Made by a program: the position numbers and the translations under genes. DNA of 8,945 nt, taken from positions 1 to 8,945 of the IMG/VR virus record IMGVR_UViG_2585427729_000015; one strand, given 5' to 3'. Of the stretch, positions 1 through 8,945 are shown piece by piece. How positions within the stretch are numbered: the first letter of the stretch is position 1; each line of letters starts with the position of its first letter. The notes beneath the pieces are model-generated. The model was given only the letters and a program-made list of their open reading frames with translations, was not told where the DNA came from and ran no database searches. The DNA comes from a virus. Taxonomy: Duplodnaviria > Heunggongvirae > Uroviricota > Caudoviricetes.

Positions 1-380
<380 letters not shown>

Positions 381-679
381 TAGACAAAGACACTATCACG
401 CAGTGGATACGAAGTGGACGACTTCAGGCCGCAAAGATAAATCCAGATAAACCTAAAAGCCCATATCGCATTTGCAAGTCAGACTGCATTGCGGCGCTTA
501 AGTCTGTAAGACACAATAGCGCGGTGAATGCGGTTGATGTGCAGGAGGTTAAAGCATGTCAATCAAACTACGCGGTGGCACGTGGCACTGCGATTTCGTC
601 GCGCCAGATGGATCAAGAGTTAGACGCTCACTTAAAATATCGGACAAAAGGCAAGCGCAAGAATTTCACGATCGTCTGA
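381..679 (+). pseudogene. Excisionase / AlpA-like DNA-binding gene, 5'-truncated by the IS insertion; 3' end overlaps the integrase start
   Basis: Frame of track ORF 308-679 translates from 381 as ...TITQWIRSGRLQAAKINPDKPKSPYRICKSDCIAALKS..., resembling the helix-turn-helix of phage Xis/AlpA-type excisionases. No start codon or N-terminal helix remains because the IS terminus abuts at 380. Position immediately upstream of, and co-oriented with, the integrase is the canonical xis-int arrangement. Confidence 0.5.
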
Positions 680-1716
680 AAGCAGAAGCGTGGAGAGTAA
701 AAAATCTCGGGGAATCACCGAAAAAGCTATTCAAGGAAGCCTGCATACGGTGGCTGCGTGAGAAATCGGATAAGAAGTCCATTGATGATGACAAGAGCAT
801 TATATCGTTCTGGATGTTGCACTTCAGAGAAACCATTCTCTCTAACATAACAACAGAAAAAATAATGGAGGCGGTAGACGGGATGGAAAACCGCCGCCAT
901 CGCCTGAACTGGGAGATGAGCCGGGACAGGTGTTTGCGGCTTGGCAAGCCAGTGCCGGAGTATAAACCAAAGCTGGCAAGCAAAGGAACGAAGACGCGGC
1001 ATCTGGCAATACTTCGCGCTATTCTCAATATAGCTGTTGAATGGGGATGGCTTGACAGGGCGCCCAAAATATCAACACCACGCGTTAAGAATGGACGAAT
1101 CAGATGGCTTACAGAGGAGGAATCGAAGCACCTGTTTGCAGAAATTGCTCCTCATTTCTTCCCTGTGGTCATGTTTGCAATCACGACAGGCCTTCGCCGT
1201 TCCAACGTTACAGACCTTGAGTGGTCACAGGTCGATCTGGATAAGAAAATGGCATGGATGCACCCTGATGAAACAAAAGCTGGCAATGCGATCGGAGTTC
1301 CTCTTAACGAAACCGCATGCCAGATATTAAGAAAACAGCAGGGGCTCCATAAGAGATGGGTATTTGTCCACACCAGACCTGCCTACCGAAGCGACGGAAC
1401 AAAAACAGCAGCGGTAAGGAAGATGAGAACCGACAGCAACAAGGCATGGAAGGGAGCGTTAAAGCGGGCGGGCATTAGCAACTTCCGCTTCCATGACCTG
1501 AGGCATACCTGGGCAAGCTGGCTGGTTCAGTCCGGTGTCTCTCTTCTTGCACTTAAAGAGATGGGAGGATGGGAAACTCTCGAAATGGTTCAAAGATACG
1601 CCCACCTTTCAGCCGGGCATCTCACCGAGCACGCGAGCAAAATCGATGCGATTATAAGTCGCAATGGCACAAATACGGCACAAGAGGTGAACGTGGTTTA
1701 CTTAAATGTGAGGTAA
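556..1716 (+). CDS. int: Tyrosine-type site-specific integrase (phage integrase family, P22-like)
   Basis: 386 aa with GGAGG Shine-Dalgarno at 543-547. Catalytic signature residues are visible: box I arginine in TTGLRRSN, HxxR in FRFHDLRHTWASWL, and catalytic tyrosine context EMVQRYAHL. The gene ends 14 bp before a tRNA-Thr 3' fragment (att core). Confidence 0.9.
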   Translation: MSIKLRGGTWHCDFVAPDGSRVRRSLKISDKRQAQEFHDRLKAEAWRVKNLGESPKKLFKEACIRWLREKSDKKSIDDDKSIISFWMLHFRETILSNITTEKIMEAVDGMENRRHRLNWEMSRDRCLRLGKPVPEYKPKLASKGTKTRHLAILRAILNIAVEWGWLDRAPKISTPRVKNGRIRWLTEEESKHLFAEIAPHFFPVVMFAITTGLRRSNVTDLEWSQVDLDKKMAWMHPDETKAGNAIGVPLNETACQILRKQQGLHKRWVFVHTRPAYRSDGTKTAAVRKMRTDSNKAWKGALKRAGISNFRFHDLRHTWASWLVQSGVSLLALKEMGGWETLEMVQRYAHLSAGHLTEHASKIDAIISRNGTNTAQEVNVVYLNVR

Positions 1717-1730
1717 TTTATTGATTTAAA

Positions 1731-1776
1731 TGGTGCCGATAATAGGAGTCGAACCTACGACCTTCGCATTACGAAT
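1731..1776 (-). tRNA. tRNA-Thr(CGT) 3' fragment, 46 nt (anticodon loop to CCA end); att core copy, not an intact tRNA gene
   Basis: Reverse complement of 1731-1776 is ATTCGTAATGCGAAGGTCGTAGGTTCGACTCCTATTATCGGCACCA, identical to my recollection of the 3' 46 nt of E. coli thrW including the CGT anticodon and CCA end. Sequence beyond 1776 does not continue into an anticodon stem, D-arm or acceptor 5' strand. Confidence 0.75.
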
Positions 1777-2523
1777 TATAAGAATCCGCTTCTAATTCAA
1801 AGTATTACCCCATCAACACTGTGCTCACACGTCCCACCACATCAAAACATGTAAAGCCTTGCAAGCCATTGTGAGGCCTTATGTGTCTCAGTTTTGTCCC
1901 ACCTTGTATTATGACTTGCATAGCCAATGAAGATAAACGTGACGACAAACAGCGCAGCAGTCTTCTTTTCTTTCACACTTTCCCCAATCAGCATACATAC
2001 TTTCTACCATAACTGTAGTGAATGTCTGTTATGAGCGAGCAAAAGAGATTCAATTACCGGGGAATTACTCCGACATAAGCTCTCCCAGAAACACCGGAAC
2101 AGCGATTCGCATATTCTCTTCTATACTTTCAGTCTGACCGGCTGGAGATTTCATAGCAAGAAAATGGATGCGCCAAGACCTATGCGGGAAAGAGGCTGAG
2201 GAAATAATTGCCGATAGCACTGTGCCCGCCGAAAAGTTAATCTGGCACGCAATGACGCGCGTCCTTGGGGCATCAGGAATCAGAGAGCCAACTTAACAAC
2301 CCATTATATATTATTTAACAGGACCGTTACATGTACAAAGTTCAATGATTAGTGATTCTGTGACGCCACATACAACCTAAGCCCCTGATATAAAACCAGT
2401 CTATGCAACACCTAAAAATCATATATGATAGGGTGATAAGTCAACGCGCAGTATAAAAATCAAGCTAAAAAATGCTTTCAGCATAGTGAATCTATTTCAC
2501 ACTACATAATTAAGGATGAAAAA

Positions 2524-3369
2524 ATGACTGCACCAGTAATTAGTTTTATCAATATGAAAGGTGGGGTTGGTAAAACAACTTTATGCGTTGGGATTGCTGA
2601 GTTTTTAGCCAACCATATGGGGCGCAAGGTTCTAGTTATCGATATTGATCCTCAATTTAATGCCACTCAGTCCTTAATGGGGCATTATGATCGAGTAGAA
2701 GAATATATGACTGCCCTTCGCCCTAATAATCAAACCATTCGAAAGATTTTTGAGCTTCCAAATTCATTAATGGAAGATGAAAAGAAAGTGACACCAGAAC
2801 AGGTCATTACTAAAGTTTCAGACAATCTTGATATTATCTTAGGTGATATAAACATTATCTTTGATACTAACCAAGAGGGTATTAGAATAAAAATGTTGCG
2901 TAAATTCATCACCGAAAATGACTTAAAAGAAAGTTACGACTATATCTTTATCGATAGCCCCCCAACAATCTCATTATTTACAGATACCGCACTCCTTGCT
3001 TCTGATTATTATCTTACTCCGGTTAAAATTGATCACTACTCGGTGCTTGGAGCAAGCAGTTTAAATAGCGTTATAAGAAATATGCGCACACATCATGAGA
3101 AAGAAATCAAGCAAGTCGGTTACATTTATACAAACACTGATGCTGAAATGACCAATAAAACAAGGGAAATTAAAGAACAATTCGAAAACCATACTCAATT
3201 TACAAATTTTTATTTCTTTGAAAATCAATTAACCTACGTGCGTGATTTAATGGTAGGTTATCAAGGAAATATTCCTTCTTGTTATTCAAAGTCACGCCAA
3301 GATATAGAAAAGATCTGTAACGAATTTATTAACAGAGTGGCTCACTTGGAAGGTAACACAAATGAATAA
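2524..3369 (+). CDS. ParA/MinD/Soj-family P-loop ATPase (deviant Walker A)
   Basis: 281 aa; N-terminal ISFINMKGGVGKTTL matches the deviant Walker A KGGxxK[ST]; VLVIDIDPQFNATQ (A' box) and YIFIDSPP (Walker B) are present. AAGGA Shine-Dalgarno 7 nt upstream of the ATG. Visibly AT-rich, roughly one-third GC by eye. Confidence 0.85.
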   Translation: MTAPVISFINMKGGVGKTTLCVGIAEFLANHMGRKVLVIDIDPQFNATQSLMGHYDRVEEYMTALRPNNQTIRKIFELPNSLMEDEKKVTPEQVITKVSDNLDIILGDINIIFDTNQEGIRIKMLRKFITENDLKESYDYIFIDSPPTISLFTDTALLASDYYLTPVKIDHYSVLGASSLNSVIRNMRTHHEKEIKQVGYIYTNTDAEMTNKTREIKEQFENHTQFTNFYFFENQLTYVRDLMVGYQGNIPSCYSKSRQDIEKICNEFINRVAHLEGNTNE

Positions 3370-3760
3370 ACAATTAATTAAAGCGCTCAATAAAGCTAAC
3401 AATATGCCCATGACCAAAGAAAACTTCTTAGGCTTGGTAATTATGTTGATTCTTTCAAAAGAGGTTTTTAGATCAAATTTTGATGTTAGTAAATTTATTA
3501 ACAAAACCTTCAAAATATCTTTTTTGAATTATGCTGTACGGTCAAGAACTTTGATGTGCGCTAAAATTTGCAAACATATTAATGAATTAAGTGAGAATGA
3601 CATAAAGATGGCTTATACGCATTTCTTAAACAACATTAACACATTAGACATTATTTTTAATGATGCAAATAAAACAAGCCAAAAATCCACATCTAAAAGC
3701 AAGCATGCTATAAGGAATTTAAATATTTGGATTAATGCAAATAAAAAGGAAGAAGAATAA
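3362..3760 (+). CDS. Hypothetical protein (132 aa), translationally coupled to the ParA-like gene
   Basis: Start ATG overlaps the upstream stop by 8 nt; GGAAGG Shine-Dalgarno 8 nt upstream. Lys/Asn-rich AT-rich coding sequence with no recognisable motif. Same strand and composition as its neighbours. Confidence 0.6.
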   Translation: MNKQLIKALNKANNMPMTKENFLGLVIMLILSKEVFRSNFDVSKFINKTFKISFLNYAVRSRTLMCAKICKHINELSENDIKMAYTHFLNNINTLDIIFNDANKTSQKSTSKSKHAIRNLNIWINANKKEEE

Positions 3761-4425
3761 TGCTCACGCAGGATCCCTTCAACATTGGAAGAGATGTAAA
3801 TTATTTTAGAGCGGAGGTGCAAAAGCACCTCAGAACCACTGATGAAATAAACAAATCAGTATCAATATTTAGGCAAATAAGTCTTTGTAATACAATTTTA
3901 AGTCACAATCCTAATCTAAATCACTCTTCTTATATAAAAGGTTTTATATATGATACCTTAAACTCCTTAATTGCCATTATAAAAAAAAGAGAACGGTATC
4001 TCCAACTGAACTTCCGCTCAATGGTGGAGCATGTGGCCAGAATAAGCCTCAATAAGAACTACAATGGTGGGGATTTTGACCAAACTGTACGTCGTAGAGA
4101 CTTTGACTTCTTAAAAGCCCAACAAGTCGATGAAGGCTGGTCTTATTTACATAATGTCTATATCAACGCCTGTTATTATGTTCACTCCTCCCCCCAAGCG
4201 AACCTAAATGTTACATCAACATTTATATCACTTATGGAGGGAGATTGTAATTCAACACAGCATAAAATGGTGAAAAAACTTCATGAGGTAGTATCGGCGC
4301 TGATGAGAATCATTATAAAGTATTATCATCAGCATATCTCAAACATTTTCTTTAGAAACAAAAAGGATTTAGAGAAAATAATGGGAAAAAGCCTTTATTC
4401 ATATTATACCAGCTTAGACAATTAA
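3760..4425 (+). CDS. Hypothetical protein (221 aa), translationally coupled (TAATG overlap); contains a possible HEPN-like Rx4H motif
   Basis: Start ATG shares one nucleotide with the upstream stop (TAATG at 3758-3762); AAGGAAG Shine-Dalgarno upstream. Contains RSMVEH (residues 86-91). No other recognisable domain by eye. Confidence 0.6.
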   Translation: MLTQDPFNIGRDVNYFRAEVQKHLRTTDEINKSVSIFRQISLCNTILSHNPNLNHSSYIKGFIYDTLNSLIAIIKKRERYLQLNFRSMVEHVARISLNKNYNGGDFDQTVRRRDFDFLKAQQVDEGWSYLHNVYINACYYVHSSPQANLNVTSTFISLMEGDCNSTQHKMVKKLHEVVSALMRIIIKYYHQHISNIFFRNKKDLEKIMGKSLYSYYTSLDN

Positions 4426-4462
4426 TTCTCTCATATTCATTGCGTAGAGCATAAATATCTAT

Positions 4463-4958
4463 CTAACCACCTAAAATGCCAGAAAATCTAGTTGTATACC
4501 GGTGCGAAAATATCTCGCGTTTCATCTGCCACTGCTGCTGAATGCCCTGCCCAGCGAAACAGAGTGTTTCCTTCCCGTCTTTTGCGTTGAGGTGCTCCAG
4601 CACGCTCATTAACTTTTCGCTCCCAGGACCCAGCGCGTTATCGTCGAATAGGTTAGGGCATGCTCTGACTGAAGAAGTCCCCCAGCATTACCCCGGCTTT
4701 CTGATATCGGTGTCCGTCTTTCCATATTGCATCCAGACTCCCCGTTGCTACTGCAATGATATCCCGACTGTCCTGTGTCGGGATGAGGAGCTTCACCGAC
4801 GCGTTGTTACAGTAGTACGACTCGTTCAACGCAAAGGGTATCGTGTAAAACCGATGATGACACTGCCGGCAATCAGCACTGACGTCAGCAAACGTGAGAA
4901 AGAACAGATAAGCCGAACGATTTAGGAAATGTTTGAAGAGACTGATATGTGGATGGTT
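4463..4958 (-). pseudogene. umuC-like (Y-family translesion polymerase) 3' remnant, 5'-truncated and frameshifted
   Basis: Minus-strand translation gives ...DSRDIIAVATGSLDAIWKDGHRYQKAGVMLGDFFSQ in one frame, ending at a stop at 4654-4656, then in the +1 frame ...NLFDDNALGPGSEKLMSVLEHLNAKDGKETLCFAGQGIQQQWQMKR...RYTTR... to a stop at 4463-4465. This matches my recollection of the UmuC C-terminal region. There is no in-frame start and the N-terminal roughly 300 codons are absent. Recognisable similarity is clearest for 4463 to about 4870. Confidence 0.55.
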
Positions 4959-5355
4959 TCAGTTTAAACGCCTTGAACCGTCATATTACCTAAGTACAAT
5001 CCGCTGTGACTGGCAATCATTCAATACTTGCACTATCAAAAGTGCATCAGCCAACCGCAGCACGTCTTGCATACGACCTGTCTGCGGTTTCAATCACCTC
5101 TCACCACCAGTCCCATCAATAATAATTAAACAGCGCCTAAACAAAATAAATAACAACAAGTCAACAACCTCGACAGGATGCCGATGGGATGATGAAGAGA
5201 TAAGAAAGAATAACTAGTAAAGCCCTAAAACGTCAGCGTTCAGACGCGTTTTTTACTTAACCGGTAACAAATACGTTGTATCATAGCAACATAAAATGAT
5301 TGTTCTAAATCAGATTAACTCCTCACTTTTGTACAATGTCGCTTACAGGTATACC

Positions 5356-7245
5356 ATGAAATCCGAGACGCTAACTGTCCAACAACTTTTTCAAGACCGC
5401 CGACAATACTGTGTTCCATTCTATCAACGTGCCTATGTATGGACTCAGCGAAACCAATGGTCAGCTCTACTGGAGGATATCCTAGAGAAAGCACAATCCC
5501 GGCTCTCGGGTACAAAACCAACTCCCCATTTCCTTGGTGCAGTTGTACTGGAACCTCAACCAAAAAAAGGATTATTCGGTGTAGATTCCATACATATTAT
5601 TGATGGTCAGCAACGATTGACCACTCTTCAATATGTTCTGGCATCCATCCGATTAGCATTACGTGCAACAGATCTTTCCAACTTAGAGCCTCTCATTTCG
5701 TCTTGCCTGAAAAACTCAAACGAAGACACAATGCGAAATAAAGAAGTAGAGCGCTTCAAACTGTGGCCAACTTTTCGGGATCAAACTCATTTTATTCAAA
5801 GTTTTAATGTTGAAAATATTGACGATATCCGGAATGTATTCTCTGATAGTTTCACGCAGCATGGTACGTTGCGTAAGCATTTTAATCACCCGCCATCACT
5901 AGAAGCATTATGTTTTTTTACTGAAGCCTTTATAAAGTGGATTAAAATAGAAAATCACTCACCACGAGAAAATGCTGTAGCATTAATTGAGGCTGTCTTG
6001 ACGGATCTGAAACTAGTAAGCATATTTCTCGAGGCTGAAGATGACGCTCAAATAATTTTTGAAACATTAAATGGCAGAGGTGCGGAACTTCATGCCACAG
6101 ATCTTATTCGCAATTATATTTTTATGTGCGCTGAACATGAAAATATTAATGCTGTTGAATTATATGAGAATGAGTGGAAGATCTTTGAAGATACGTACTG
6201 GTCAGAAAGACAACGTCGTGGTCGTATTAATAAACCACGCATGGAGTGGCTAGTGCATGCAACATTGCAATCAGAAAGGCAACGTGAAATCGATCTGTCT
6301 CGTCTTTACAATGAGTATCGTGATTATGTAAGTAAGGACTTGCCTTCACAACGAGCAGATCTGCAAGTAAAGCGCCTCAAACAATATGCATCACAATATA
6401 AAGAATTGGTTGGTGGTTTTGGCACAACCCCCATCTCACACTTTGGACATCGCATCGCAGCCTATGATGTGACGACACTTTATCCGCTTGCTTTGTTCAT
6501 TTCGATAGCTAACATCGCCGATGATGAGAAAGCAGCCATGTATAATGATCTTGTCTCCTACGTAGTACGAAGAGCCGTATGTGGCCTGACGCCAAAGAAT
6601 TACAACAATGTATTTATGAATGTATTGCGGCACTTGTCTAAAACAGAAATTTCCAGTGTTGAGTTACGTAATATCCTCAATAGCTTAAATGGCGAAGCCT
6701 CACGTTGGCCTGGGGACTCAGAATTTCTCAACGCTTGCATCAATGCTCCACTTTATCCTGGCAGGCTCGACGCACCGAAAATGCGCTCAATGTTAACGGA
6801 ACTTGAAAGAGAACTTTGTCGCCAAGTGAAGACAGAGAAGCCTGATGTTCCAAATCTTTCTAACCTCGATATCGATCATCTTATGCCTCAAAGTTGGTAT
6901 TCCTGTTGGCCTCTCGAAAATGGTCATATGGTGACAAATTCAGATGCTACGGTATTGAACCAAATTGTTCTGTCTGGAACCGATCTTACCCCAGAACAGC
7001 TACTGGTAAGGAAACGGCAACAAGCGATAACTACGTTGGGAAATCTAACTTTGCTTAACCTTAGCGTAAACCGTTCTGTTCAGAATGCTGTATTTCTGAA
7101 AAAACGTGATGCTCTCATCGTCCACACCAATCTACGACTGAACATTCCACTTATAGTTAAGGATAAATGGGATGAGGATGAAATCCTGGAGCGGGGTAAA
7201 AAGTTGGGGGAAATTGCATTGAAAGTATGGCCAAAACACGATTAA
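5356..7245 (+). CDS. DUF262 (ParB-like NTPase/nuclease) + DUF1524 (HNH-like) protein, GmrSD-family candidate type IV restriction endonuclease
   Basis: N-terminal YCVPFYQRAYVW and IIDGQQRLTTL (DGQQR) are the hallmark of DUF262; C-terminal NLDIDHLMPQSW and LGNLTLLNLSVNRSVQN resemble the DUF1524 His-Me finger. Start placed at the ATG at 5356 (AGG 6 nt upstream); an in-frame ATG at 5296 with no Shine-Dalgarno would add 20 residues. Confidence 0.8.
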   Translation: MKSETLTVQQLFQDRRQYCVPFYQRAYVWTQRNQWSALLEDILEKAQSRLSGTKPTPHFLGAVVLEPQPKKGLFGVDSIHIIDGQQRLTTLQYVLASIRLALRATDLSNLEPLISSCLKNSNEDTMRNKEVERFKLWPTFRDQTHFIQSFNVENIDDIRNVFSDSFTQHGTLRKHFNHPPSLEALCFFTEAFIKWIKIENHSPRENAVALIEAVLTDLKLVSIFLEAEDDAQIIFETLNGRGAELHATDLIRNYIFMCAEHENINAVELYENEWKIFEDTYWSERQRRGRINKPRMEWLVHATLQSERQREIDLSRLYNEYRDYVSKDLPSQRADLQVKRLKQYASQYKELVGGFGTTPISHFGHRIAAYDVTTLYPLALFISIANIADDEKAAMYNDLVSYVVRRAVCGLTPKNYNNVFMNVLRHLSKTEISSVELRNILNSLNGEASRWPGDSEFLNACINAPLYPGRLDAPKMRSMLTELERELCRQVKTEKPDVPNLSNLDIDHLMPQSWYSCWPLENGHMVTNSDATVLNQIVLSGTDLTPEQLLVRKRQQAITTLGNLTLLNLSVNRSVQNAVFLKKRDALIVHTNLRLNIPLIVKDKWDEDEILERGKKLGEIALKVWPKHD

Positions 7246-7265
7246 TGCAATTAATAAAATGATTA

Positions 7266-7293
7266 TAGCGGCCTTACATTAGTAAGGCCGCTA
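7266..7293. terminator. Perfect 12-bp stem / 4-nt loop hairpin; possible intrinsic terminator, orientation unclear
   Basis: TAGCGGCCTTAC-ATTA-GTAAGGCCGCTA at 7266-7293, 21 bp downstream of the GmrSD-like stop. U-rich flank is present on the minus-strand side (complement of AATAAAATGAT), not clearly on the plus side. Confidence 0.4.
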
Positions 7294-7495
7294 CTCACTA
7301 TTAAATCCTTTAATTTGCAATAAGAACAGCAGTGTCAGCCCTAGGTTTCGGACTTTGTACCGCTTATCTTGTCTTCAAAAATCAGCTCGCATCCTGCACA
7401 GCTCAACGCATTACGTTGTAGATCGGTGTTCTGGTCATTTGTTGATACGCGTACATAGCCAATAAGCATGGTAGCGCCCCCTGACAAAAGCAGGA

Positions 7496-7846
7496 ATGAT
7501 GCCATTTGCTCGTTATTTCTGCATTTTCATAAATGTTGGTTTAAGAGCAAGCGGGCAGTACACCGATAATTTGTTATTTACAGGTCCTGATGGTCTTAAG
7601 ATTCAGGTGTTTCGCCGGACGCTCGCAAATTTGACTACTGTCGGTGTAGTAAATTCTGTGCCAGTGACTTTCCCTGTCCCGTTCCCTGTTAATTGCTGGG
7701 GCGTTTTTTCTACCAAATTAACATGGGTTCAGATAACTAACTCATGCGAGTGGGTAAGCAATACAGGATTTACCGCTCAGGTCATGATGAATATTGCTGT
7801 AAATACAAACACCTCAGACGCTATGTTTTTAGCTATAGGATATTAA
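7496..7846 (+). CDS. Tail-fibre C-terminal (variable) segment, probably a silent or truncated alternative distal tail-fibre coding block
   Basis: Frame is open only from 7475; no convincing ribosome-binding site for the ATG at 7496. Stop at 7844-7846 lies 1 nt before the ATG of a tail-fibre-assembly gene, the typical stf-tfa junction. Sequence is Thr/Asn/Val/Pro-rich (VTFPVPFPVN). Confidence 0.45.
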   Translation: MMPFARYFCIFINVGLRASGQYTDNLLFTGPDGLKIQVFRRTLANLTTVGVVNSVPVTFPVPFPVNCWGVFSTKLTWVQITNSCEWVSNTGFTAQVMMNIAVNTNTSDAMFLAIGY

Positions 7847-7847
7847 T

Positions 7848-8288
7848 ATGAATCGTTTTGTGTTCAGTCCATCTGAGTCCCGTTTTTATGCCATCGAGTG
7901 GCAGGCTGATTATGTTGATAATAATTGTTGGCCGCATGATGCCATTAACGTTAGTGACAGCATTTATTATGAGTTTTCCGGCACTCCCCCTACAGGTAAG
8001 CAACTTATAACTTTAAATAACATGCCATCATGGGGTGATATTCCTCCACCTACACGAGAAGAATTAATTGTCACCGCTGATGTCGAGAAGCAAAAAAGAA
8101 TAGATTTAGCCAATGATTACATGAACGGTAAGCAATGGCCTGGTAAAGCAGCTATTGGTCGTCTGAAAGGTGAGGAACTGGCACAATATAATTTGTGGCT
8201 GGATTATCTGGACGCACTGGAGCTGGTCGATACCGCCAGTGCGCCAGATATTGAATGGCCTACGCCTCCGGCAGTTCAGGCCAGATGA
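7848..8288 (+). CDS. Phage tail fibre assembly protein (Tfa/U-like chaperone)
   Basis: 146 aa with the characteristic C-terminal region ...YNLWLDYLDALELVDTASAPDIEWPTPP shared by lambdoid/Mu/P2 tail-fibre assembly proteins. AGGA Shine-Dalgarno 7 nt upstream. Confidence 0.75.
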   Translation: MNRFVFSPSESRFYAIEWQADYVDNNCWPHDAINVSDSIYYEFSGTPPTGKQLITLNNMPSWGDIPPPTREELIVTADVEKQKRIDLANDYMNGKQWPGKAAIGRLKGEELAQYNLWLDYLDALELVDTASAPDIEWPTPPAVQAR

Positions 8289-8862
8289 CATCCGGCGCGG
8301 TGCTCGTATCTGTTGCTGTCACCGCGTCAATGTAATCCAGCACAGTGTTAAGGCTGGTTGTTTCTGCCTGCGTCAGTTTACGTCCGGCCTGCAATTTCAG
8401 CTGAATCAGACTGATTGAATCCATTACAGTATCAATCAGTGACTGGCGCTGTGCTTCTGCTGCATCTACTGCGGCGCTATGCTGTGCTTCGGTATCCGTC
8501 ACCCATTTCTCACCATCCCATTTATCGTATGGCGTTAACGGGGCGATAGTGGTTGTATTATCAGGGTAATCACCCGGAACTGTGATTTCTTTTGATTCTC
8601 CTGTTTCGGTGCTAAAGACGATTTCACCGCGATAGTCTGGCACATATTCCCATGAGTTAAAATCTACAGATCGGCAGATTGCATAACCAGCTTTGTATGT
8701 GACAGGGGCATCTAAACAGGAATATGCAGGGATACCGACACCAACGGCAAGATATTCAGTTGATGTGGAAATATATTCCCGTGTTTCACCATCATAGTTA
8801 TAGACGGTAATATTCCCCGCCTTTGTAGCAATAAACTCGCTATTTAATACAGCGTTATCCAT
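8260..8862 (-). CDS. Phage tail fibre assembly protein (Tfa/U'-like), convergent with the plus-strand tfa
   Basis: 200 aa; ...PYDKWDGEKWVTDTEAQ... and C-terminal ...DAVTATDTSTAPDVIWPELPEA match the Tfa family pattern. GAGGG Shine-Dalgarno upstream; start ATG overlaps the stop of an upstream minus-strand ORF (TAATG). Confidence 0.8.
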   Translation of the reverse strand: MDNAVLNSEFIATKAGNITVYNYDGETREYISTSTEYLAVGVGIPAYSCLDAPVTYKAGYAICRSVDFNSWEYVPDYRGEIVFSTETGESKEITVPGDYPDNTTTIAPLTPYDKWDGEKWVTDTEAQHSAAVDAAEAQRQSLIDTVMDSISLIQLKLQAGRKLTQAETTSLNTVLDYIDAVTATDTSTAPDVIWPELPEA

Positions 8863-8945
8863 TATGCAGCCCTCACGATATAGTTAAATGCAATATTCCG
8901 TGGACGGGTTTCATTTATCCCATATGCTGTTGTTCTCTGATTCCC
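8862..8945 (-). CDS. 3' end of a minus-strand tail-fibre gene (partial; continues beyond the window end)
   Basis: Open frame across the final 27 codons (...GNQRTTAYGINETRPRNIAFNYIVRAA-stop) with its TAA overlapping the ATG of the downstream tfa. Too short for independent confirmation. Confidence 0.4.
   Translation of the reverse strand, partial: GNQRTTAYGINETRPRNIAFNYIVRAA

Follow-up and report, generated by a model that had tools for sequence, protein, structure and literature searches.

When an open reading frame (ORF) joins a DUF262 domain to a DUF1524 domain beside phage tail genes, does it encode a self-sufficient restriction enzyme, one part of a larger defense system, or a relic of either? 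The question is raised by a stretch of 8,945 nucleotides (nt) assigned to the tailed viruses (Caudoviricetes; IMG/VR record IMGVR_UViG_2585427729_000015, positions 1 to 8,945), hereafter the window. An earlier note, made from the letters alone, had proposed that the gene at 5356–7245 encodes a stand-alone, GmrSD-like candidate Type IV restriction enzyme within a defense island. Our analysis indicates that the gene is very probably an intact allele of the prototype Escherichia coli Type IV enzyme GmrSD and that it forms the last, accessory gene of an e14/SfII-like prophage. Coordinates and strands refer to the window unless a locus code (L00x) is given, and the features are collected in Table 1.

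Identity to the prototype GmrSD enzymes

A Pfam search placed both domains well above chance: PF03235 (GmrSD_N) matched residues 8–256 with an E-value of 6.7e-34 (118 bits versus a cut-off of 33), and PF07510 (GmrSD_C) matched residues 451–619 with an E-value of 4.2e-20 (72.5 bits versus a cut-off of 23). The two are fused within a single chain of 629 residues, or 649 if the plus-strand ORF in the list (5296..7245) is counted from its first ATG. The start at 5356 is an ATG with AGG 8 nt upstream, from which the protein opens MKSETLT. Every related locus has the gene annotated from this start in RefSeq, and the expressed, active Eco94GmrSD begins at the equivalent residue (PMC4437046). Nine related loci were read: W21, WCHEC025985, UTI89, AST240, TUM17668, MS20649, VTB96929v, EC_J_9, and H22 (L001–L003, L005–L007, L011–L013). 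Against the PADLOC single-gene model mREase_IV (PDLC03655) the protein scores 1437 bits, covering profile positions 1–629 of 629. Public databases list the exact protein under the name "DUF262 domain-containing protein [Escherichia coli]"; its cluster at 90% identity has 1185 members, and an NCBIfam search returned no model for it.

Closeness to characterized enzymes takes the identification further. Sequences of EcoUTI89GmrSD, Eco94GmrSD, and EcoCT596GmrSD were transcribed from Supplementary Fig. S1 of He et al. 2015 (PMC4437046), and the transcribed UTI89 copy agrees at 100% of residues with the product of the UTI89 gene in RefSeq. In an ungapped comparison, 606 of 629 residues (96.3%) are shared with EcoUTI89GmrSD, gap-free and with 23 substitutions. 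Eco94GmrSD and the single-chain EcoCT596GmrSD each share 591 of 629 (94.0%), again gap-free, and 26 of the 38 substitutions fall in residues 1–160. EcoUTI89GmrSD (UTI89_C2960, WP_000834402.1) likewise has 629 residues and the same local gene order, running through a DinI remnant, gmrSD, a pin stub, an invertible tail-fiber segment, ymfQ, and baseplate genes. The UTI89 prophage, however, lies at ssrA, and a LEM-3-like GIY-YIG gene takes the upstream position that the ParA cassette has in the window. Its codons 1–200 and 321–629 are near-identical to those of the window even at synonymous sites, whereas codons 201–320, where K280T and K285R of the window sit, are of a different lineage. Eco94GmrSD and EcoCT596GmrSD, also of 629 residues, have the same D507/H508/N522 and DGQQR as the window protein and an almost identical C-terminal half, but their N-terminal lineage differs, with synonymous divergence (dS) of up to 0.7–1.0. 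Both prototypes are carried by prophages beside tail-fiber genes. Among the related loci, the L005 copy, which occupies the e14 slot at icd, is 99.8% identical to the Eco94/CT596-type enzyme.

The genomic setting matches as well. In all nine related loci gmrSD is the last gene of an e14/SfII-like prophage, and the published placement of Eco94 gmrSD, directly downstream of tail-fiber genes in an SfII-like prophage (PMC4437046), agrees with what we see in the window and the nine loci. For the prototype group we looked for a full-length, gap-free match of at least 90% identity to the CT596, Eco94, or UTI89 enzyme, and for a prophage-borne gene adjoining tail-fiber genes. Both were found, the latter in the window and all nine loci, and every in silico feature examined points to membership of the GmrSD family and of its prototype group.

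Conservation across the wider family is equally consistent. In a search of 1.84 billion cluster representatives, 12,813 relatives passed E ≤ 1e-3 and 963 passed E ≤ 1e-30; the majority of the top 150 align along the whole protein, roughly residues 1–626. An alignment of the window protein with 93 representatives (29–53% identity; 94 sequences) contains 25 invariant columns, including P21, Q24, R25, W29, D83-G-Q-Q-R87, N239, D249, H508, P511, and N563, and the window protein has the family residue in 25 of 25. R554, G562, N572, and K583, conserved in 92–93 of the 94 sequences, are also present, and position 507 is E or D throughout. The nuclease motif reads D507-H508-L-M-P511, with DIDH at 505–508 followed by C517, N522, N528, and N535. 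In Eco94GmrSD the substitutions D507A, H508A, and N522A each abolish cleavage (PMC4437046), and all three of these essential residues are kept in the window protein. The coordinates, the fusion of two domains in one chain, the DGQQR motif at residues 83–87, and the DH...N...N pattern in the earlier note are all borne out. Its description of a GmrSD-like candidate was right about GmrSD but understated the relationship, in that the gene is an allele 94–96% identical to the enzymes that define the family.

Activity, integrity, and allelic variation

Published work on these close relatives suggests what the allele may do. Eco94GmrSD cleaves T4 DNA, which carries glucosylated 5-hydroxymethylcytosine (glc-hmC), and T4gt DNA, which carries 5-hydroxymethylcytosine (hmC), with Mg2+ or Mn2+. 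It is stimulated by hydrolyzable nucleoside triphosphates (NTPs) or deoxynucleoside triphosphates, ATP included, and restricts T4 and T4gt 15–20-fold, leaving lambda unrestricted (PMC4437046). The Eco94 and CT596 enzymes, each cloned alone in heterologous hosts, restrict T4 delta-ip1 more than 10^6-fold (PMC4437046). For the UT enzyme, insensitivity to IPI* has been reported, as has restriction of T2 and T6 but not of T4 (PMC4437046, which cites the in vivo UTI89 phenotype from earlier work). For the homologue BrxU, mutagenesis and structure assign the DGQQR glutamines and arginine to positioning of the gamma-phosphate. NTP binding turns the interlocked BrxU dimer into monomers, and the DHxxP His-Me finger at the C-terminus can cleave only after the N-terminal domain has hydrolyzed NTP (PMC8565348).

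Carried over by analogy from the near-identical GmrSD enzymes and BrxU, these steps outline a plausible mechanism for the window allele. Its DUF262 domain would bind and hydrolyze NTP through DGQQR and QR..W, licensing the enzyme, and the DUF1524 His-Me finger (D507-H508 ... N522, plus N563) would then cut duplex DNA containing hmC or glucosyl-hmC. Host and prophage DNA are unmodified and would be spared because they lack hmC, so that no methyltransferase or immunity partner should be needed. The prophage would use GmrSD to exclude superinfecting T-even-type phages, which in turn counter with injected inhibitors, for example Ip1/IPI*. In essence, the window enzyme is most likely a stand-alone, NTP-stimulated, modification-dependent His-Me nuclease that excludes T-even phages. 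Because the residues that distinguish the UT from the CT enzyme are of UT type in the window, its phage range is probably UT-like—T2 and T6 rather than T4, with IPI* insensitivity—and not CT596/Eco94-like. The difference in N-terminal lineage means that IPI* sensitivity and T4 restriction are not safely transferable from Eco94 or CT596.

Several points weigh against an active enzyme with the properties just outlined. Purified UTI89GmrSD, the closest characterized relative, was inactive in vitro under all conditions tried (PMC4437046 supplement), and a UT-like specificity presupposes that its determinants lie within residues 1–160. Eleven residues are unlike those of all three characterized enzymes, and the carrier prophage is possibly defective. 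The candidate promoter at 5257–5284, which falls within the conserved gmrSD module, is a weak call, as scan matches in that region are no more than shuffled expectation. Lastly, K280T is the sole window substitution touching a mutated Eco94 site, and the Eco94GmrSD double mutant E278A/K280A is nearly inactive.

The double mutant and the inactive UTI89 protein, set in surroundings rich in pseudogene debris (the pin stub; UmuC, DinI, and SOS-peptidase remnants), are also the best case for supposing that the allele looks intact but is dead or weakened, a relic in a decaying prophage owing to K280T and other substitutions. We consider that improbable. Across the family, position 280 varies (P/R/S/K/D), but 93 of 94 sequences have an acidic residue, D or E, at 278, and E278 is retained here. 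T280, moreover, is shared by L001, L002, and TUM17668 (L006), whose allele is otherwise CT-like, and so is found on two different allele backgrounds. Since 278 is conserved, 280 variable, and T280 recurrent, the defect of the double mutant is more plausibly owed to E278, and K280T was set aside as an unlikely inactivating change on these grounds of conservation. All invariant family residues are present, the 629-residue ORF is intact in seven of the seven copies translated (window plus six loci), and a near-full-length match is found in 300 genomes. Whole-gene ratios of nonsynonymous to synonymous divergence (dN/dS; Nei-Gojobori) are 0.15 for the window versus UTI89, 0.11 for the window versus the Eco94-like allele, and 0.17 for UTI89 versus the Eco94-like allele, values that indicate clear purifying selection.

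Of 5426 complete E. coli genomes, 300 (~5.5%) contain gmrSD at 80% or more of its length. It is always on the chromosome; the median copy number is one, and no genome has it in more than two places. When 306 matching records were banded by nucleotide identity to the window gene, 69 fell at 99% or above (window type), 154 at 95–99% (UTI89 among them at 96.6%), and 83 at 90–95%, where the sampled alleles are Eco94/CT-like. A tblastn search of 50,697 phage records gave only distant matches, the full-length ones below 28% identity and two short N-terminal fragments at 42–43%, so gmrSD is not among the sequenced free phages of that collection.

The alleles themselves read as recombinant mosaics, because synonymous divergence shifts sharply near codons ~200 and ~320. 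In blocks of 40 codons, dS between the window and UTI89 is 0–0.13 over codons 1–200 and 321–629 but 0.34–0.60 over codons 201–320; between the window and the Eco94-like allele it is 0.67–0.97 over codons 1–120 and 0–0.09 over codons 321–600. The window allele thus combines UT-type codons 1–200, a third lineage at 201–320 (K280T, K285R), and the common C-terminal half at 321–629. A sliding-window search of the variable N-terminus gave no convincing sign of diversifying selection: dN/dS is 0.1–0.25 where divergence is high, and blocks with values near 1 rest on one to four changes. The N-terminal pattern is that of recombination between old lineages, with no detectable excess of replacements. 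There is a modest chance that such a three-part chimera, with range (T4 versus T2/T6) and Ip1/IPI* sensitivity mapping to residues 1–160, has a profile that could differ from both characterized enzymes. If so, the three allele groups in 300 E. coli genomes would constitute a ready-made swap panel.

Relation to neighboring defense genes

What lies upstream of gmrSD varies widely among the loci. The window, W21, and WCHEC025985 have the ParA cassette with UmuC and DinI remnants; UTI89 has the LEM-3-like GIY-YIG gene at ssrA (L003 14004–14777, minus strand); and TUM17668 has the reverse transcriptase-endonuclease of retron Ec67 (L006 4369–6045, minus strand). MS20649 and EC_J_9 have the insertion sequence IS2, or a DinI remnant only, next to tRNA-Pro, the MS20649 IS2 (L007 5594–6822) being inserted 165 bp upstream of the gmrSD start codon. 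In the three strains AST240, VTB96929v, and H22, the icd remnant lies directly upstream. With no conserved upstream partner in the nine loci, GmrSD stands alone.

An alternative is that GmrSD is one component of a larger system with the adjacent cassette of a ParA-like ATPase, a 132-residue protein, and a predicted HEPN protein, the cassette for instance regulating or backing up the nuclease. Cassette and gmrSD do lie within ~900 bp of each other on the same strand and co-travel at 99% identity or more in a set of E. coli genomes. Yet the cassette is full-length in only 52 genomes versus 300 for gmrSD, UmuC and DinI pseudogene remnants separate the two, and the conserved gmrSD module begins only at ~5012. 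The trio also occurs without gmrSD in Dickeya and Yersinia, and the enzymes of Eco94 and CT596 are active by themselves in heterologous hosts. We regard a composite system as very unlikely.

The stand-alone GmrSD enzyme proposed in the earlier note, with no SspABCD- or BREX-like neighbors and an AT-rich cassette nearby, therefore stands; homologues embedded in a larger system, which that note had said would overturn it, are not what the nine loci and the singly cloned prototypes reveal. Its defense-island reading holds only in part. Other defense genes do occur in the slot in other strains (retron Ec67, for example), and the neighboring cassette in the window ends in a predicted HEPN protein, but the locus is not a classical chromosomal island; gene order identifies it as a variable (moron) slot at the end of an e14/SfII-like prophage, next to tail-fiber genes.

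Structural comparison leads to relatives of a different kind. An AlphaFold2 model built from the 94-sequence alignment has a mean predicted local distance difference test score (pLDDT) of 94.9 and a predicted template modeling score (pTM) of 0.90. Foldseek against the Protein Data Bank (PDB) gave ten significant matches (E ≤ 0.001), and these and the next one are all DUF262/DUF1524 enzymes: DndI (9jfl), SspE (7drs, 7drr, 6jiv, 7dri), and BrxU (7p9k, 7p9m), each at probability 1.00. Identity in the structural alignments is 11–16%, and BrxU and GmrSD have been reported to share 13% (PMC8565348). Global template modeling (TM) scores are low (0.25–0.5), as expected if the relative placement of the two domains differs. 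A phmmer search of PDB sequences found DndI (9jfl, E 1e-7) and two weak DUF262 chains only; the BrxU and SspE chains were missed even at E ≤ 10 and surfaced only by fold comparison. BrxU (7P9K), SspE (6JIV, 7DRS), and DndI (9JFL) have the two-domain fold, DGQQR, and (D/E)HxxP in common with the window protein, but their genes form part of BREX, Ssp, or Dnd loci, and the marks that they recognize are different (5-methylcytosine, 5mC, as well, or phosphorothioate). That the window protein is itself a phosphorothioate-sensing (SspE/DndI-like) or BREX-associated (BrxU-like) enzyme not directed at hmC can be dismissed as hardly credible: its best structural matches are DndI and SspE, and weak PADLOC matches to SspE cover residues 8–120 (E 6e-16), but identity to DndI/SspE is 12–16% versus 94–96% to the hmC/glc-hmC enzymes, and no ssp, dnd, or BREX genes occur in the window or the nine related loci.

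The prophage slot and its surroundings

The stand-alone gmrSD gene lies in a short conserved module common to all the related E. coli loci. In UTI89, AST240, TUM17668, and MS20649, homology to the window begins at 5012–5189 and ends at 7542–7554, and the flanks differ (blastn versus seven loci); a longer block, 1662–7542, recurs at 99% identity or more in many E. coli chromosomes. Downstream order is shared by nine of nine loci: hairpin, a "recombinase family protein" that RefSeq annotates as incomplete at the position of the pin stub, a gp53-like tail-fiber C-terminus, and a tail-fiber assembly gene, followed in most by a second, opposed assembly gene. Seven of the nine run on into ymfQ and baseplate J genes, the tail module of an e14/SfII-like myovirus; TUM17668 has a different baseplate module, and in WCHEC025985 a lambda-like tail (gpJ, Lom) comes next. 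The G+C content of gmrSD (37–44%) is below that of the window ends (45–49%), which fits horizontally acquired cargo.

Comparison with the e14 prophage of K-12 provides a further view of this slot. There the gene order is stfP, tfaP, tfaE(-), stfE(-), pinE, mcrA, icdC, whereas AST240, VTB96929v, and H22 run from icd remnant through gmrSD, pin stub, and tail-fiber segment to ymfQ. Judged by these orders, gmrSD occupies the e14 position of the rest of pinE plus mcrA, in the opposite orientation and converging on the pin stub. Beside the icd remnant, pinE and mcrA are found in L004 (K-12 e14, locus 5686–7180), and gmrSD with the pin stub in L005 (7001–9115), L011, and L013. In e14-family prophages integrated at icd, the terminal slot can accordingly be seen to hold one or the other of two unrelated Type IV restriction enzymes, in opposite orientations. 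EcoKMcrA lies in the same slot, beyond the pin invertase and the invertible tail-fiber segment and beside icdC, and is likewise a Type IV, HNH-type, modification-dependent nuclease; it is, however, an unrelated protein of a different family, of ~277 residues, that targets 5mC sites. An intact pinE runs in the same direction as mcrA, whereas the pin gene toward which gmrSD converges breaks off after 42 codons.

The stub translates as MLIGYVRVSTNDQNTDLQRNAL... before its stop, and window 7346–7542 has 93.4% DNA identity to the upstream region and first ~124 nt of pinE in K-12 e14. Beyond it, window 8133–8912 is 89.6% identical to e14 tfaP/tfaE. The gmrSD module cuts the invertase gene to 42 codons, and the segment that the invertase would flip is still present. 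Presumably the segment is frozen unless another Pin/Gin-type enzyme acts in trans. An inverted-repeat search of the window did not recover the pin crossover sites, and the one on the right is probably located past the end of the window. The hairpin between gmrSD and the stub was called on the minus strand by the terminator scan, but its sequence is palindromic, and it is likely a terminator between the two converging genes.

As an identification, GmrSD is already known here, correct but ordinary: descriptions of GmrSD date from the 2000s and its purification in single-chain form from 2015, both Pfam and PADLOC have models for it, and the structure of a homologue, BrxU, has been solved. The window allele is a previously uncharacterized mosaic. 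Slightly new, if descriptive, are the equivalence of the mcrA and gmrSD slots in e14-family prophages, the mosaic alleles, and the variable cargo site upstream of gmrSD. In all nine related loci the RefSeq name is only "DUF262 domain-containing protein", despite 94–96% identity to GmrSD. The practical value lies in annotation. Present in ~5.5% of complete E. coli genomes, the gene bears on the host range of T-even-type therapeutic phages.

Table 1. Features of the window in order of position (aa, amino acids; CDS, coding sequence).
Feature	Position	Strand	Remarks
IS3-family orfA fragment	6-344	-	left end of window
Small ORF	308-679	+	helix-turn-helix by annotation in similar genomes
Tyrosine integrase	556-1716	+	intact, 386 aa
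AT-rich three-gene cassette	2524..4425	+	29-36% GC; ParA-like ATPase 281 aa, 132-aa protein, 221-aa predicted HEPN protein
Conserved gmrSD module	5012..7554	+	leader, gmrSD, hairpin, pin stub; ends at edge of invertible tail-fiber segment
Candidate sigma-70 promoter	5257..5284	+	TTAACC-16-TATCAT; ~70 nt upstream of start codon; consensus scan 9/12
gmrSD CDS	5356..7245	+	629 aa + stop, intact ORF; exact protein WP_032344426.1
DUF262/GmrSD_N domain	5377..6123	+	ParB/Srx-like NTP binding and hydrolysis; residues 8-256
DGQQR motif	5602..5616	+	residues 83-87; invariant 94/94; NTP gamma-phosphate positioning, role from BrxU (PMC8565348)
Codon 280	6193..6195	+	Thr; Lys in Eco94, CT596, UTI89; sequence comparison
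DUF1524/GmrSD_C domain	6706..7212	+	His-Me finger (HNH-type) nuclease; residues 451-619
Catalytic stretch	6868..6921	+	D505-I-D507-H508 ... N522 (DHxxP ... N); DIDH at residues 505-508
Hairpin	7265..7294		13-bp stem (7 G-C pairs); 20 nt past gmrSD stop; terminator scan
pin-type serine invertase 5' stub	7344..7469	-	42 codons, MLIGYVRVSTNDQ... then stop (translation)
Invertible tail-fiber segment	7496..8862		Pfam Gp53-like_C and Caudo_TAP twice
Alternative fiber C-terminus	7496-7846	+	within invertible segment
Tail-fiber assembly gene	7848-8288	+	within invertible segment
Second tail-fiber assembly gene	8260-8862	-	within invertible segment

At the left end, window 300–1776 has 100% matches in other genomes, where the RefSeq annotation shows an integrase, a tRNA-Thr, and IS3. 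Although that tRNA-Thr lies under the identical match, an ARAGORN scan of the window returned no tRNA. The whole window occurs in one piece in no complete genome (best 72%), so the junction between the integrase and the gmrSD block is unusual. Pseudogene debris surrounds the cassette: an SOS-response-associated peptidase at ~2150–2300, the C-terminus of UmuC (DUF4113) at ~4463–4844 on the minus strand, and DinI at ~4842–4925 on the plus strand, all three placed according to how RefSeq annotates loci of 99% identity. The mechanically called ORFs at 4542–4925 and 4933–5217 are probably not genes.

The 132- and 221-residue proteins of the cassette gave no Pfam, NCBIfam, or meaningful PADLOC match, the 132-residue protein having one marginal PADLOC hit (E 0.0027), and both match PHROG families of unknown function. 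A literature search for a ParA plus HEPN defense system found no relevant paper. The 221-residue protein, which has no match in the phage collection, belongs to a family confined to Enterobacterales. In Dickeya and Yersinia the trio keeps its overlapping stop and start codons in other island contexts, and from its predicted content the cassette may be an undescribed abortive-infection or toxin-type defense module.

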